Below, in pieces: positions 33,712 to 42,343 of a stretch of DNA of 64,000 bases. The stretch's first letter is position 1. Every line of letters begins with the position of its first letter. This DNA comes from an uncultured Candidatus Saccharibacteria bacterium. Lineage in GTDB: Bacteria > Patescibacteriota > Minisyncoccia > Phycocordibacterales > UBA9973. The notes under the pieces are model-generated. The model searched no databases. It saw only the letters and a program-made list of their open reading frames with translations, and was not told where the DNA came from. The position numbers and the translations under genes are program-made. The stretch is taken from NCBI GenBank assembly GCA_964563615.1, contig CAZLWF010000004.1, positions 1,800-65,799 on the forward strand, in the 5' to 3' direction.

Positions 33712-34155
33712 TTATTTCCTATATTTTTTACTTCTCCACTTATCAGCAATTTTCACTCGGTTAAGTGAGCGCTCGAGTTCTGCTTCGAAGTGCTCAAAGT
33801 CAACATCGGAAGCATTTTGTTTCTGTTGCATGAGCTCATTTGCACGAGACCTAGCACTTTCGATATCCTTCTCAATATCAGTAACATGCTCGGCGAAATC
33901 AGCAAGTATTATCACTTCTCCACCACTTTCAGATTGTTTAACCTCAACAAATCCTCCTGTTACTGCCATTGGCACATCGTCATCTCCACCACGAGCAACG
34001 ATTTCACCACTGCCTAAGGATGAAATAAGTGGCACATGCCCAGGTAAGACAGTGATTTCACCTTCTGTTGTAGGTAACGTCACTTGAGTTACCTCTTCTT
34101 CGAGAATCATACGCTCAGGAGTAACGATTTTCAGTTTTAGTGTTTTAGTTGACAT
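33712..34155 (-). CDS. atpC: F1 ATP synthase subunit epsilon
   Basis: LKIVTPERMILEEEVTQVTLPTTEGEITVLPGHVPLIS is typical epsilon. Confidence 0.88.
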   Translation of the reverse strand: MSTKTLKLKIVTPERMILEEEVTQVTLPTTEGEITVLPGHVPLISSLGSGEIVARGGDDDVPMAVTGGFVEVKQSESGGEVIILADFAEHVTDIEKDIESARSRANELMQQKQNASDVDFEHFEAELERSLNRVKIADKWRSKKYRK

Positions 34156-34163
34156 TTCTAAAC

Positions 34164-34169
34164 ATATTA
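34164..34169 (-). promoter_or_regulatory. putative -10 box TAATAT for atpC
   Basis: Read on the minus strand. 8 nt upstream of ATG 34155. Implies atpC can be transcribed separately from atpD. Confidence 0.35.
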
Positions 34170-34237
34170 GTTATTATTTAAATTCATTAAAACCTTGTTC
34201 TATGATAAATTTAAAACACTTATCCAAGGCTGTAAGG

Positions 34238-34318
34238 ATGACATTTCTATTCTTATCAGGAGTAGCGATTCTATTTATAATCCTTTGCCTTTTGGTGTGC
34301 ATCGGACTGGCTATCTGA
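34238..34318 (+). CDS. possible 26-aa hydrophobic peptide, antisense to the atp operon
   Basis: ATG 34238 to TGA 34316-34318, encoding MTFLFLSGVAILFIILCLLVCIGLAI. AAGG lies just upstream and the 28-nt palindrome lies 15 nt downstream. No conservation evidence. Confidence 0.25.
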   Translation: MTFLFLSGVAILFIILCLLVCIGLAI

Positions 34319-34333
34319 TTTTAAACTCTTATT

Positions 34334-34361
34334 CCCCCAGATACGTATACGTATCTGGGGG
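34334..34361. terminator. 28-nt perfect palindrome / hairpin between atpD and atpC
   Basis: CCCCCAGATACGTA|TACGTATCTGGGGG. T-tracts are weak on both sides. Confidence 0.6.
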
Positions 34362-34369
34362 ACTTTAAT

Positions 34370-35719
34370 TTACATCGCCCCCCTCATATAAAACTCTTGC
34401 TCACCTTTCTCATCATGTTTACCATCCAGTATCTCACGGAACGATCGGATTGTATCTTCAAGCTTCACATACTCCCCTGCACGACCAGTGAATTGTTCTG
34501 CAACAAAAAATGGCTGCGAGAGGAATCGCTGGATTTTACGCGCTCGTGTCACAAGCTCTTTGTCTTCTTGAGAAAGCTCTTCCATGCCCAAGATCGCGAT
34601 AATGTCTTGGAGGTCTTTGTAGCGCTGGAGTACACGTTGTACTTCACGGGCAACTTCATAGTGCTCTTTACCGACGATGTTCGGATCGAGAATTGTTGAT
34701 GATGAATCGAGTGGGTCAACAGCTGGATAAATACCGAGCTCTGAAAGTGAACGATTAAGTGTCACGGTCGAGTCTAAGTGTGCAAATGTTGTTGCTGGCG
34801 CAGGGTCAGTCAGATCGTCAGCTGGCACGTATACAGCCTGGACACTCGTTACAGAGCCTTTGTCGGTCGAAGTGATACGTTCTTGCATATTGCCCATTTC
34901 TGATGCCAAGGTAGGCTGATAGCCCACTGCTGACGGAATGCGTCCCAAGAGTGCGGAAACTTCTGAACCAGCCTGAGTGAAGCGGAAAATGTTGTCGATA
35001 AAGAACAACACGTCTTTGCCTTCTTCATCGCGGAAGTGTTCAGCCATAGTAAGTCCCGTAAGTCCGACACGAGCACGAGCGCCTGGTGGTTCATTCATCT
35101 GACCGAAGACCATGGCAACTTTGTCGAGCACTCCTGAATCTTTCATTTCATGATAGAGGTCGTTACCTTCACGAGTTCGTTCGCCGACACCTGCGAACAC
35201 TGAGTAACCTCCGTGGTTTGATGCGATGTTGTGGATGAGTTCTTGGATAACGACGGTCTTCCCGACACCTGCACCTCCGAAAAGTCCCACCTTGCCGCCT
35301 TTGAGTACTGGACAAATAAGATCAATAACTTTGATACCTGTTTCTAGTATTTCGACTTTGGTTGATTGTGCAGTAAATGCTGGTGGTTTGCGGTAGATCG
35401 CAGAACGTTTGGCAGACTTGGTTTTTTCCTTACCATCAATCACATCACCCAAGACGTTGAAAATTCTCCCAAGTGTATCTGTGCCAACTGGAACAGATAT
35501 CGGTGCACCAGTATCAGTGACTTCCATACCACGATACATGCCATCGGTAGAATCCATAGCTATCGTACGGATGACGTTGTTCCCGAGGTGGTATTGTGTC
35601 TCGAGTACAACACGCTTGCCATCGATCTCGGTTTCGATAGCGTTATATATTTCTGGGATATGGTCTGTGAATTCTATGTCGACTACCGGCCCGATAATTG
35701 TTTTTACTGTTCCTTTCAT
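34370..35719 (-). CDS. atpD: F1 ATP synthase subunit beta
   Basis: Walker [16 protein letters not shown]-region equivalent, high similarity throughout. Confidence 0.95.
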
Positions 35720-35723
35720 AAAA

Positions 35724-40149: not shown

Positions 40150-40153
40150 ATTC

Positions 40154-40351
40154 TTATATAGATTCCAAAAATAATCGGTACAGCGTATGGTAACAATGAT
40201 AAGGGTTTGACTCTCCCGGTATTGGGTCTCCTCCTCTTCCTTCTCTCTCTAAAATACAATCTTTCGTACTTACAATACTGGCAAAAAATAAAATCCAAAT
40301 TGAAATTAAAATACCAAGCGCTATAAAAAAACTTTTAAATCCTTTTGACAT
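40154..40351 (-). CDS. small membrane protein inserted between atpF and atpH, hypothetical
   Basis: 65 aa, one TM helix. 1-nt gap to the atpF stop and 4-nt gap to the atpH start. Confidence 0.4.
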   Translation of the reverse strand: MSKGFKSFFIALGILISIWILFFASIVSTKDCILEREGRGGDPIPGESNPYHCYHTLYRLFLESI

Positions 40352-40352
40352 A

Positions 40353-40850
40353 CTATTTTAGCTCTTTAACTGCCTGATCTATTAACACAGCATCAATTTT
40401 AGGTGTAACCGTACCGGTCAAAACTTTCTCAGTTGCTTGAATTACCATACTTCCCAATTCTTTCTTTGCATCATCAAGCATTTTCTGCTTCTCGGCCAGA
40501 AGACTTGTCTTACCATTTTTCATAAGAGCTTCTACATCAGCTTCAGCAACTTTAAGTAGTTCAGCACGTTTAAGATCAGCACTTCTTTTTGCTTCAGTTA
40601 GTATATCTGCCCCCTCTTTACGAGCTTGCGCAAGTGCTTCATCGTATGCTTTTTGTGTGTCCGCGAGAAGCATTGCGTTTTGAGTCCCTTGTGCGAGACC
40701 TTCCGCAATTTTATGAGACCGCTCATCCATAAGTTTTCGGATTGGCTTGATAGCAAAATACCAAAGCACAAGAAACACAATGCCGAAATTAATCGCCTGT
40801 GCGAGCATAATTTTCCAATCTATGTGAAATGTAGAAATAAGAGAGTCCAT
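40353..40850 (-). CDS. atpF: Fo ATP synthase subunit b
   Basis: N-terminal TM helix followed by a long A/E/K-rich helix. Position in the operon fits. Confidence 0.8.
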   Translation of the reverse strand: MDSLISTFHIDWKIMLAQAINFGIVFLVLWYFAIKPIRKLMDERSHKIAEGLAQGTQNAMLLADTQKAYDEALAQARKEGADILTEAKRSADLKRAELLKVAEADVEALMKNGKTSLLAEKQKMLDDAKKELGSMVIQATEKVLTGTVTPKIDAVLIDQAVKELK

Positions 40851-40879
40851 ACTATTCGCTGTTCACTATTTACTTTTTA

Positions 40880-41107
40880 CTACTTGAGCGAGAACGCGAT
40901 CACTAATGCATAAATAGCAATAGCTTCTGCGAAGGCTGATGCAATAAGCATAGGGACGAGCACTTTGTTGGCTGCCTCAGGATTGCGACCAATCGCTTCC
41001 ATAGCACGAGAACCAATCATACCAATACCAAGTCCAGGACCAATAGCACCAAGACCGATAGCAATAGCTTTTGCGAGTGGGATAAGATCCACAGCTGTGT
41101 TTTCCAT
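40880..41107 (-). CDS. atpE: Fo ATP synthase subunit c
   Basis: 75-aa hairpin with [16 protein letters not shown] loop and [12 protein letters not shown] (carboxylate Glu). Confidence 0.9.
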
Positions 41108-41198
41108 AAAAATATAAATAAACTACTAGATTAATAATGACATCTTATAATGTAGATGTTCTCTGCCGGCGAATGCTTCGTCAAGAGAGAACAGTACA

Positions 41199-42080
41199 TT
41201 AATGTTTTTCTGCATGCGCCTCATCATGATCCTCTGACGCAATAGAGAAATATACCAATGTAAGCATTGAAAAAATGAGCGCTTGGATAAGTCCCACAAA
41301 AATCTCAAGACCAAGGAATGGGATCGGCAAGACATATGCGAGGAGCGCAGCCATCGAAGCTAAGAGTACTTCACCAGCAAAGACATTACCGAAAAGACGA
41401 AATGAAAGTGATGCGACTTTTGCTGCTTCACCAACAAGCTCAAGAATGCCAACAAAGAACATAACTGGTGCAACCATAAGAATGCTTGGATCTTTGCGAA
41501 CGTCGGTAAAAACTTTCCCAAGCGCCTTCAGATTAACATATTTATTGAATGTTTTCCAGGCACCAATCGAGAGAATACCAAACAAATTAGAGCCAAGCAC
41601 TGCCATTACTGCAAGTGCAAGTGTCGTATTAATATCTGCTGTTCCGCTACGCAAAAATGGCAAAAACGCACTCTCACCACCATGCTCGGCAACTAAACCA
41701 AAAGCACCGAGTGGCAATATACCTAGCCAGTTATTGATGAGAATAAAGAAAAATACTGATAGTGCGATAGGAAAAATTTTGAGCGATTTGGCACGGTTGC
41801 CAGTGATTTGATCAGTAAGATCAAGAGTCTGTTCTATAATAACTTCAAACAATGTCTGAAGTTTACTCGGCACTTTTCTAATACTAAGCCTCACAACAAT
41901 AGCCAAAATCACTATAATACCGACTGCAATCCAACTCGTCAGAAGTGCGTTTGTTATGGTGAAGTTGCCAATACGGCCGATCGGTTCGGCATATATCGTT
42001 ACCTCATGAACAATTTCATGTGAGGTATCCATAGAATCAAGTAGAGCTTCGTTATCTAAAATTTGATTTTCGTTATGCAT
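41199..42080 (-). CDS. atpB: Fo ATP synthase subunit a
   Basis: SLSFRLFGNVFAGEVLL (essential Arg helix). Confidence 0.9.
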   Translation of the reverse strand: MHNENQILDNEALLDSMDTSHEIVHEVTIYAEPIGRIGNFTITNALLTSWIAVGIIVILAIVVRLSIRKVPSKLQTLFEVIIEQTLDLTDQITGNRAKSLKIFPIALSVFFFILINNWLGILPLGAFGLVAEHGGESAFLPFLRSGTADINTTLALAVMAVLGSNLFGILSIGAWKTFNKYVNLKALGKVFTDVRKDPSILMVAPVMFFVGILELVGEAAKVASLSFRLFGNVFAGEVLLASMAALLAYVLPIPFLGLEIFVGLIQALIFSMLTLVYFSIASEDHDEAHAEKH

Positions 42081-42324
42081 GCGTTTGATTGTCGTTGTCT
42101 TTAATAGTTTGCAAATACTTTTTGATTACTTTGAGAATACCAAAAATTGAGATAAAAAACGCCAATGCAGTAAGTCCAAGAAACATCCATGGTTCTGTAC
42201 CAAAAGTTCGATCTAGATATTTCCCAACGAATAAAGCAATAACGATTGGTATAGCTACCCACGTGCTTACTCGCCCAAATATAACGAGTGAGTCATACCA
42301 CCATGGTTTTTGTTTTTGATCCAT
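42073..42324 (-). CDS. AtpZ/AtpI-like small membrane protein
   Basis: 2 TM segments, first gene of the atp cluster. Start placed at ATG 42324; the ORF track uses GTG 42330. Confidence 0.6.
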   Translation of the reverse strand: MDQKQKPWWYDSLVIFGRVSTWVAIPIVIALFVGKYLDRTFGTEPWMFLGLTALAFFISIFGILKVIKKYLQTIKDNDNQTHA

Positions 42325-42343
42325 AAACACAAACGACAGTTTG

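Follow-up and report, generated by a model that had tools for sequence, protein, structure and literature searches.

Probable guest genes in strain-variable slots of the F1Fo ATP synthase operon of an uncultured bacterium of the candidate phyla radiation

We analysed a stretch of 64,000 nucleotides (nt), hereafter the window, which covers positions 1,800 to 65,799 of contig CAZLWF010000004.1 (assembly GCA_964563615.1) from an uncultured Candidatus Saccharibacteria bacterium. An F1Fo ATP synthase operon lies in it on the minus strand, running from 42330 to 33712. According to the list of open reading frames (ORFs), the order is atpZ-a-c-b-(65 aa)-delta-(107 aa)-alpha-(187 aa)-gamma-(230 aa)-beta-(214 nt)-epsilon, where the lengths in amino acids (aa) stand for inserted ORFs. 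All eight structural subunits (a, c, b, delta, alpha, gamma, beta and epsilon) were recognised with Pfam, co-oriented and in canonical order, together with an atpZ-like ORF. The order b-delta-alpha-gamma-beta-epsilon is among the most stable bacterial gene orders, and its protection is commonly ascribed to stoichiometric coupled expression. In the window the direct adjacency of these genes is broken by four foreign ORFs, called ins1 to ins4 here, and by a spacer of 214 nt. An earlier note on this DNA had described the same gene order, strand and ORF coordinates, and all of them were recovered exactly from the ORF list and Pfam. We consider it probable that the inserts are four mutually unrelated accessory genes which occupy strain-variable slots of the atp operon and are exchanged by homologous recombination via the conserved atp genes.

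The inserts are packed tightly against the subunit genes. The spacer in front of the insert is 1 nt from b to ins1 (TAGTATG), 1 nt from delta to ins2 (TAATATG), 5 nt from alpha to ins3 and 1 nt from gamma to ins4 (TAATATG), while behind it there are 4 nt from ins1 to delta, 33 nt from ins2 to alpha, 21 nt from ins3 to gamma and 4 nt from ins4 to beta. The recurring junction is TA(A/G)TATG. The starts at 1-5 nt after the preceding stop, which the earlier note had read as a sign of translational coupling, are thus real, and coupling may follow from them. The motif TARTATG was counted 37 times in the window against an expectation of 23 +/- 4, and tight spacing is the general start context of this genome; the spacing therefore does not point specifically to a functional link with the ATP synthase. 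Parts of the arrangement recur in independent assemblies from other samples (L081, L173 and L180-L183; L numbers denote the loci fetched for comparison), and so the architecture is no artefact of binning or assembly.

No match to a Pfam or NCBIfam family was obtained for any of the four inserts. Homologues were collected by one exhaustive search with the four proteins concatenated, against 1.84e9 representatives, and by three indexed searches. When the mononucleotides were shuffled in 20,000 trials, an open frame survived in 0.35% of them for the length of 65 aa, in 0.005% for 107 aa and in 0% for 187 and 230 aa. The ratio of nonsynonymous to synonymous substitution rates (dN/dS), which the earlier note had named as a check for coding, is 0.20 for ins2 (against L173) and 0.26 for ins4 (against L082); for ins3 against L091, the proportions of nonsynonymous and synonymous differences (pN and pS) are 0.28 and 0.68. 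Purifying selection is clear for three of the four inserts (ins2, ins3 and ins4). In slot 1, the open frame with its transmembrane helix persists through complete sequence turnover in four backgrounds. The four inserts are real genes and not junk. A crude hydropathy scan found an N-terminal transmembrane segment in ins1, ins3 and ins4, and ins2 begins with Met-Pro, in agreement with the three anchored proteins and one soluble Pro-1 protein of the earlier note. The profiles of the ins2, ins3 and ins4 families found no significant match among PDB sequences, a PHROGs scan of the inserts gave nothing meaningful and no pointer to a prophage, and PADLOC run on the inserts gave only a marginal ZorA-like match for ins3 (E=1e-3, 16 bits). 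The inserts are not a defence island.

The earlier note had also stressed the AT-richness of the inserts, and its counts are exact (16/60 G+C at 37321-37380 against 27/60 at 38401-38460). As a sign of foreignness they are weak. The G+C fraction is 0.32-0.35 for the inserts and 0.338 for delta, when compared with 0.394 for the window and 0.397 for the median gene; several other window genes lie at 0.31-0.35, and it is alpha, beta and gamma that are the G+C-rich outliers. An argument for foreign origin from composition was dropped, the inserts being within the range of the window's genes and delta being equally AT-rich.

The gene in slot 1, ins1, starts with MSKGFK and continues with a single transmembrane helix and a Cys-containing tail, which is probably outside the cell. 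It returned only self-hits among the 1.84e9 representatives. Positional counterparts with MSKGFK and a transmembrane helix are a 69-aa ORF in L173 and an 80-aa ORF in L082, and L180 holds a copy identical to that of the window, so that an ORF of this type is found at the b-delta junction in the window, L173, L180 and L082. For slot 1, at least four alleles were counted (65, 69, 52 and 80 aa), and the backgrounds of two of these are 92-98% identical. The ins1 type is faithful to the b-delta slot, and its tail is hypervariable. In L180 (Joint Genome Institute, JGI, 3300045372) the ORF in front of the identical ins1, at 643-1581, has 312 aa and is a fusion in which the N-terminal part of an ATP-grasp_3 protein precedes the second half of b; the break falls at window position 40601, and the contig is probably chimeric.

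The gene in slot 2, ins2, belongs to a family of more than 330 homologous clusters of 107-aa proteins, many of them 58-70% identical, which are annotated only as hypothetical and occur in Liptonbacteria, Doudnabacteria and other members of the candidate phyla radiation (CPR). Its N-terminus is MPLIRL, and a Met-Pro start is found in 114 of 119 homologues among the matches listed and retrieved; some distant family members start with MGAMI. The residues E55, N93 and W101 are nearly invariant. AlphaFold2, given an alignment of 47 sequences, predicted a duplicated beta-alpha-beta fold with the elements E-H-E-E-H-E at a mean predicted local distance difference test (pLDDT) of 97. The top matches of this model in a Foldseek search of the PDB are MIF, D-DT, 4-OT, MSAD and cis-CaaD (E about 1e-5, TM-score about 0.65). 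There are 79 matches to solved structures with E<=1e-3, and among those listed almost all belong to the tautomerase superfamily, with TM-scores up to 0.71. At the sequence level, ins2 matched no tautomerase family of Pfam or NCBIfam, and its family profile matched no PDB sequence. On the model, ins2 is probably a cytoplasmic enzyme of the tautomerase superfamily. What it shares with that superfamily (MIF, D-dopachrome tautomerase, 4-OT, cis-CaaD, MSAD) is the predicted two-fold beta-alpha-beta repeat and a Pro-1 after removal of Met; it differs in lacking a sequence-level match to any Pfam tautomerase family or PDB sequence. An ortholog occupies the same slot in L173. Elsewhere, members of the family follow gyrA (one contig) or lie between relA/spoT and a methyltransferase (a set of others).

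The product of ins3 shares with its homologues a short N-terminus, a single transmembrane helix, the basic stretch YxxQKxIDR and a helical domain that contains the motif WHD; the positive-inside rule indicates that this domain is probably cytoplasmic. There are about 35 homologues (22-55% identity), which conserve the motifs NNAT, YxxQKxIDR, DRIxNTY and WHD. Homologues are located between mreC and tgt, and the closest one (55%, L091) is not flanked by atp genes. In L178, L179 and L181, an unrelated 153-aa ORF (x153), which codes for a membrane protein, takes the place of ins3. Homology of the window to L178 and L181 stops at 37908, the left boundary of slot 3, and the C-terminus of alpha reads KYTVN* in the window and LTVFVE* in L178. 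A contig of 916 nt, L090 (JGI 3300045333), is 99.9% identical to the window over 37908-37221, that is, over ins3 and the start of gamma. Its positions 1-228 are an AT-rich sequence of 228 nt, joined exactly where the window and L178 diverge (37908), and this part has no match in any fetched locus. The join could be a third arrangement of the slot or an assembly chimera.

In the product of ins4, a Pro/Thr linker joins an N-terminal transmembrane anchor to a beta-rich domain that has two invariant Cys and is probably outside the cell. Its homologues form only two clusters, with 66% (L082) and 29% (L092) identity, and the family occupies the gamma-beta slot of the window, L082 and L092; all three known members, a tiny sample, are within atp operons. 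Between the window and L082, ins4 is 66% identical in amino acids with a pS of 0.53, when compared with 59% and a saturated pS for the flanking gamma. That ins4 is closer than its flanking gene fits a lateral exchange of an old allele, and it is also compatible with a position-linked function. The AlphaFold2 model, made from a 3-sequence alignment, has a pLDDT of 42 and is unusable. In L178, an unrelated soluble ORF of 311 aa (x311) replaces ins4. No homology was found between x311 and a 310-aa junction protein of L012, or between x153 and the other junction ORFs.

The closest genomes are metagenome-assembled genomes of Paceibacteria/Parcubacteria, in the CPR, whose gamma subunits are 53-71% identical to that of the window. 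Many relatives (L001, L004, L006, L007 and L097-L104) have compact canonical operons, and in most of the closer relatives the junctions used in the window hold other genes. In L003, delta-alpha is occupied by a membrane protein of 172 aa, and the six ORFs at alpha-gamma include a HicB/HicA toxin-antitoxin pair (L003 6261-6728). L092 holds an acidic 187-aa protein and an ART-PolyVal ADP-ribosyltransferase (L092 3027-3746) at alpha-gamma, L012 an excisionase-type helix-turn-helix (HTH) protein and the 310-aa protein mentioned above, and L002, L093, L094 and L095 small membrane or Cys-rich proteins. The family matches among the cargo of the relatives are HicA/HicB, ART-PolyVal, HTH_17 and DUF5674. 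In an all-against-all comparison of 32 junction ORFs from 11 operons, the only homologies across genomes were the ins4 family and the N-terminus shared by ins1 and the 80-aa ORF of L082. Membrane proteins are not significantly enriched in the junction ORFs (20/35 against 28/69 of the window genes, Fisher p=0.15).

In L005, alpha-gamma holds a polytopic protein of 98 aa, and gamma-beta holds five ORFs. The 3' end of gamma is duplicated in this locus as a direct repeat of 35 nt with 94% identity (7855-7889 and 9010-9044), which surrounds a gamma-beta insertion of 1155 nt. The last ORF of the insertion ends in gamma's own C-terminal peptide SAGMASVS, and the ORFs that follow each copy of the repeat are membrane-protein paralogues, 46% identical.

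The same-junction conservation that the earlier note had proposed to look for was thus absent in most relatives, which lack the inserts or hold unrelated ORFs, and the content of three of the four slots (1, 3 and 4) is polymorphic even at the strain level. This polymorphism between near-identical strains was not anticipated by the earlier note. L173 is 90-97% identical to the window from tRNA-Ile to alpha and has the same layout b-(small ORF)-delta-(ins2)-alpha. Its nucleotide identity drops to 56-67%, with many gaps, only across 40300-40110, a region made up of most of ins1 and the beginning of the delta coding sequence. The slot-1 proteins of L173 and the window are 40% identical, against 88-100% for their neighbours. 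L182 is 98% identical over delta-ins2-alpha, yet it has a different 52-aa transmembrane ORF in slot 1.

For slots 3 and 4, the comparison is with L178, which provides the strongest evidence and whose source JGI sample also holds the exact copy of ins3 in L090. From 34445 to 28679 (~5.8 kb) there are 0 mismatches to the window, except for 3 near 33600. Over beta, gamma and alpha, the divergence rises to ~10%, with 5-16 mismatches per 75 nt across most of this region, and it fades near the 5' end of alpha to 1-4 mismatches per 75 nt upstream of ~39200. The two strains therefore differ by one tract of ~4.8 kb that contains slots 3 and 4, both non-homologous, while the alpha, gamma and beta proteins are almost unchanged despite the replacement of ins3 and ins4. 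Such a tract, whose ends fall inside alpha and beta, bears the signature of homologous recombination with a divergent donor. The variable segment of slot 3 begins 19 nt ahead of the alpha stop and that of slot 4 at the gamma stop, and both end no more than 7 nt short of the next ATG; that of slot 1 extends ~12 nt into delta. These ragged edges argue against a precise site-specific mechanism. The segments span gene ends, so each carries along its own form of the adjacent gene end and of the initiation region that follows. Table 1 collects the coordinates of the features.

Table 1. Features of the atp operon and its borders in the window.
Feature	Position	Strand	Remarks
tRNA-Ile (GAU)	42344..42418	-	ARAGORN; Rfam tRNA 77.6 bits; immediately upstream of the operon
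atpZ/atpI-like small membrane protein, 85 aa	42073..42330	-	PF09527 ATPase_gene1, E=2.4e-9
atpB, Fo subunit a, 293 aa	41199..42080	-	PF00119, E=1e-41
atpE, Fo subunit c, 75 aa	40880..41107	-	PF00137, E=1e-17
atpF, subunit b, 165 aa	40353..40850	-	PF00430, E=2e-22
ins1, probable guest gene of slot 1, 65 aa	40154..40351	-	b-delta junction; hypervariable locus
atpH, delta/OSCP, 134 aa, short N-terminal domain	39745..40149	-	PF00213, E=2e-26
ins2, probable guest gene of slot 2, 107 aa	39420..39743	-	delta-alpha junction; soluble Pro-1 protein
atpA, F1 alpha, 498 aa	37890..39386	-	Pfam domains; last 5 codons within the variable segment of slot 3
Slot 3 variable segment	37300..37908	-	alpha-gamma; carries ins3 (37321-37884, 187 aa)
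atpG, F1 gamma, 293 aa	36418..37299	-	PF00231, E=6e-90
Slot 4 variable segment	35720..36417	-	gamma-beta; carries ins4 (35724-36416, 230 aa)
atpD, F1 beta, 449 aa	34370..35719	-	Pfam domains
beta-epsilon spacer, 214 nt	34156..34369	-	13-bp palindrome; 42-aa ORF (34174-34302)
atpC, F1 epsilon, 147 aa	33712..34155	-	PF02823 and PF00401
Bidirectional terminator-like hairpin	33691..33707	.	ends the operon and the convergent gene 33075-33686
Tract ~10% divergent from strain L178 (approximate extent)	34446..39200	-	alpha, slot 3, gamma, slot 4, beta; near-identical flanks

The affinities of the operon are mosaic. The atpZ, a and c products are closest to those of L082 (78, 86 and 95% in amino acids), gamma is closest to L005 and L092 (both 71%, with 59% for L082), and epsilon is closest to L005 (73%; L092 is without epsilon). 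These affinities suggest older recombination inside the operon as well.

In the mechanism that we propose for guest genes in exchangeable slots, the conserved atp genes would serve as homology arms for the exchange. The guests, apparently without promoter or terminator of their own, would be transcribed as part of the atp mRNA, and their translation would depend on coupling or re-initiation at the TA(A/G)TATG-type junctions. Where the genome is small, promoters are few and hardly any DNA is intergenic, new genes would be tolerated mainly at sites at which no gene is broken and downstream expression is not blocked. The products would act independently of the ATP synthase, ins3 as a membrane-anchored cytoplasmic helical protein, and ins1 and ins4 as membrane-anchored, Cys-containing and surface-exposed proteins. 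Promoter-like sites are not in excess (29 against 27.5 expected), nor are terminator-like sites (9 against 6.2 expected), and none of these 9 lies in a spacer adjoining an insert.

Elsewhere in the window, on the minus strand at 51831-54324, a transketolase is split into an N-terminal gene (53458-54324) and a C-terminal gene (51831-52829), two functionally coupled genes with an AT-rich, foreign MazG-like gene (52822-53187, 121 aa) and about 270 nt in between. An AT-rich 203-aa ORF with no family match (57330-57941, minus strand) ends 1 nt before rpiB, and another of 108 aa (51267-51593, plus strand), also AT-rich and with no family match, begins 1 nt after a PfkB kinase gene. The two ORFs next to rpiB and PfkB share the TAATATG-type junction with the atp inserts. 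The comparable wedging of the MazG-like gene and of the ORF before rpiB may be counted as support for the reading as guest genes.

Several points weigh against our preferred reading. The comparison set is small, with about 30 related Paceibacteria operons from genomes and metagenomes and with short metagenomic contigs. Three lineages keep the ins4 family at gamma-beta, with identities as low as 29%, and three or four keep the ins1 type at b-delta; pure hitchhiking need not give either pattern, and both could reflect a functional tie. The enzymatic assignment of ins2 draws on two things only, its predicted fold and Pro-1, and the co-transcription and coupling of the guests are what we infer for them. 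A related and broader proposal is the following: the atp operon might be a multi-slot expression platform for a strain-variable set of small surface proteins of the ins1 and ins4 types, diversified by phage or host pressure and shuffled via the F1 genes, and/or the ins1 type and ins4 might be true partners of the CPR ATP synthase with its truncated delta. We hold this to be possible but doubtful.

One option of the earlier note was that the inserts are lineage-specific accessory subunits, assembly factors or regulators. For some or all of them to be so, encoded beside their target subunit and made in step with it, is unlikely in our view. Their common strand and the spacing of 1-5 nt would suit such a role, though the spacing is the generic start context of the genome. 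The ins4 family, which is under purifying selection and sits at gamma-beta in L082, L092 and the window, and the ins1-type ORF at b-delta in the window, L173, L180 and L082 also speak for it, and for these two the position is partly conserved across the lineage; the inserts are otherwise absent from most related operons, and the ins2 and ins3 families, with members in non-atp contexts, are not confined mainly to atp neighbourhoods. The shortened N-terminal domain of delta might be compensated for by an insert, but relatives free of inserts share the same short delta. While ins3 probably places a cytoplasmic domain on a membrane anchor, the bulk and the conserved Cys of ins1 and ins4 are predicted to be extracellular and so remote from F1, ins1 has a hypervariable tail, and the predicted fold of ins2 resembles that of an enzyme. 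Moreover, unrelated genes replace ins3 and ins4 in a near-identical strain in which the F1 proteins are almost unchanged. As a general reading it is not supported, whereas the other option of the earlier note, unrelated genes hitchhiking on a highly expressed operon, gained support from the relatives and near strains that carry other genes. The view of the inserts as new ATP synthase subunits is largely refuted, and strain-variable slots for guest genes replace it.

The two remaining alternatives concern how the inserts arrived and whether they do anything. It is improbable that they are cargo of a site-specific or targeted mobile system (integron-like cassettes, a homing element or a small integrative element) which recognises the ends of atp genes. 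The repeat of the gamma 3' end around the 1155-nt segment of L005 would be explained by such a system, as would the recurrence of the left boundary 37908 in the window, L178/L181 and L090 and the mobile or selfish cargo of relatives (HicAB, ART-PolyVal, the excisionase-type HTH). The repeat and the recurring boundary also hint that genes may come into the slots by routes other than homologous exchange. No direct repeats flank the junctions of the window, however, and among the loci only L005 has a duplicated gamma 3' end; the spacers of 1-33 nt are too short for attC-like sites, and no scanned insert of the window or relatives matches a recombinase or homing-endonuclease family. The boundaries lie irregularly inside gene ends, 19 nt into alpha and ~12 nt into delta, and the one well-resolved exchange is a homologous tract of 4.8 kb and not a precise cassette swap. 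Even less can be said for inserts without function, be they expanded AT-rich spacers, decayed remnants left open or a misassembly, which we regard as very improbable. This would account for the missing family annotation, the low G+C, an ins1 without detectable homologue in 1.84e9 representatives and the failed structure prediction of ins4. It is at odds with a pN well below pS for ins2, ins3 and ins4, with the pLDDT of 97 for ins2, with open frames that are improbable by chance, with the slot 1 that keeps an open frame and a transmembrane helix in four backgrounds, and with independent assemblies that reproduce the arrangement. For ins2 to ins4 it is largely refuted.

The delta subunit aligns only to positions 63-172 of the OSCP profile, with about one third of the N-terminal domain missing. 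This domain normally binds the N-terminus of alpha. The earlier note had remarked on the shortness of delta (134 aa); the shortness is confirmed and is lineage-wide, with 127-137 aa in all Paceibacteria relatives examined, with or without inserts.

Between beta and epsilon, the spacer contains a 13-bp perfect palindrome (34333-34362, TCCCCCAGATACG/CGTATCTGGGGGA) which lacks a T-tail on the operon strand; the spacer of L178 is 100% identical. A 140-aa Cys-rich transmembrane protein occupies this junction in L002. The spacer may be an empty or decayed fifth slot. Beyond the operon, a plus-strand ORF of 203 aa (33075-33686, G+C 0.325) whose family was not recognised converges on the operon end and shares the hairpin at 33691-33707; it is kept in strain L178 with at most 3 mismatches. 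On the other side, the tRNA-Ile gene is the upstream limit of synteny with relatives, and similarity to L173 begins there. An Rfam scan of 33-43 kb gave nothing beyond this tRNA.

Full-text literature searches returned no description of inserts in CPR atp operons, in line with the earlier note, which knew of no atp operon with such an alternation. The closest known systems are replacement flexible islands and integration hotspots, such as capsule or O-antigen loci that are swapped via conserved flanks, and the hypervariable regions of streamlined marine bacteria. The atp slots resemble them in their conserved flanks, in non-homologous content between close strains and in an exchange tract that reaches into the flanks (window against L178), as well as in the slot-1 differences from L173 and L182. 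Further likenesses are alleles shared across distant lineages (ins4 is 66% identical to L082, the flanking gamma 59%) and a cargo that is in part probably surface-exposed. The slots differ in that they hold single genes of 0.2-0.7 kb, several of them adjacent, inside one essential packed operon, and in that the guests appear without promoters or terminators of their own and their edges overlap the ends of atp genes. Phage morons are likewise single unrelated genes between conserved co-oriented genes, variable and more AT-rich than their neighbours. Morons, which belong to phage genomes, classically bring a promoter and a terminator with them, whereas the guests of the window appear to depend on transcription of the operon, with no sign of a prophage (PHROGs negative).

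Extra genes for small membrane proteins are also known from atp operons, namely atpI/atpZ and the AtpQ/AtpR of N-ATPase operons, which are conserved families at fixed positions ahead of or within the Fo genes. The likeness lies in small membrane genes in an F-type ATPase operon, and the atpZ-like ORF of the window matches PF09527; ins1 to ins4 match none of these, have their places among the stalk and F1 genes and give way to other genes from strain to strain. Integron cassettes were considered too. An integron attC site is an imperfect palindrome of about 60-140 nt after each ORF, with an integrase and attI nearby. With spacers of 4, 33, 21 and 4 nt after the inserts and no families of junction repeats, this candidate was rejected; the integrase scan covered 32-43 kb only.

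In this clade as a whole, foreign genes are tolerated at several atp junctions and exchanged between strains, which suggests that junctions inside essential operons can act as flexible genome in the ultra-small genomes of the CPR. The assignment of function by shared operon ('guilt by operon') should accordingly be treated with caution in these organisms. The slots would provide a concrete case of new genes gaining expression without promoters of their own, and they point to candidate strain-specific surface proteins in bacteria that probably live attached to a host.

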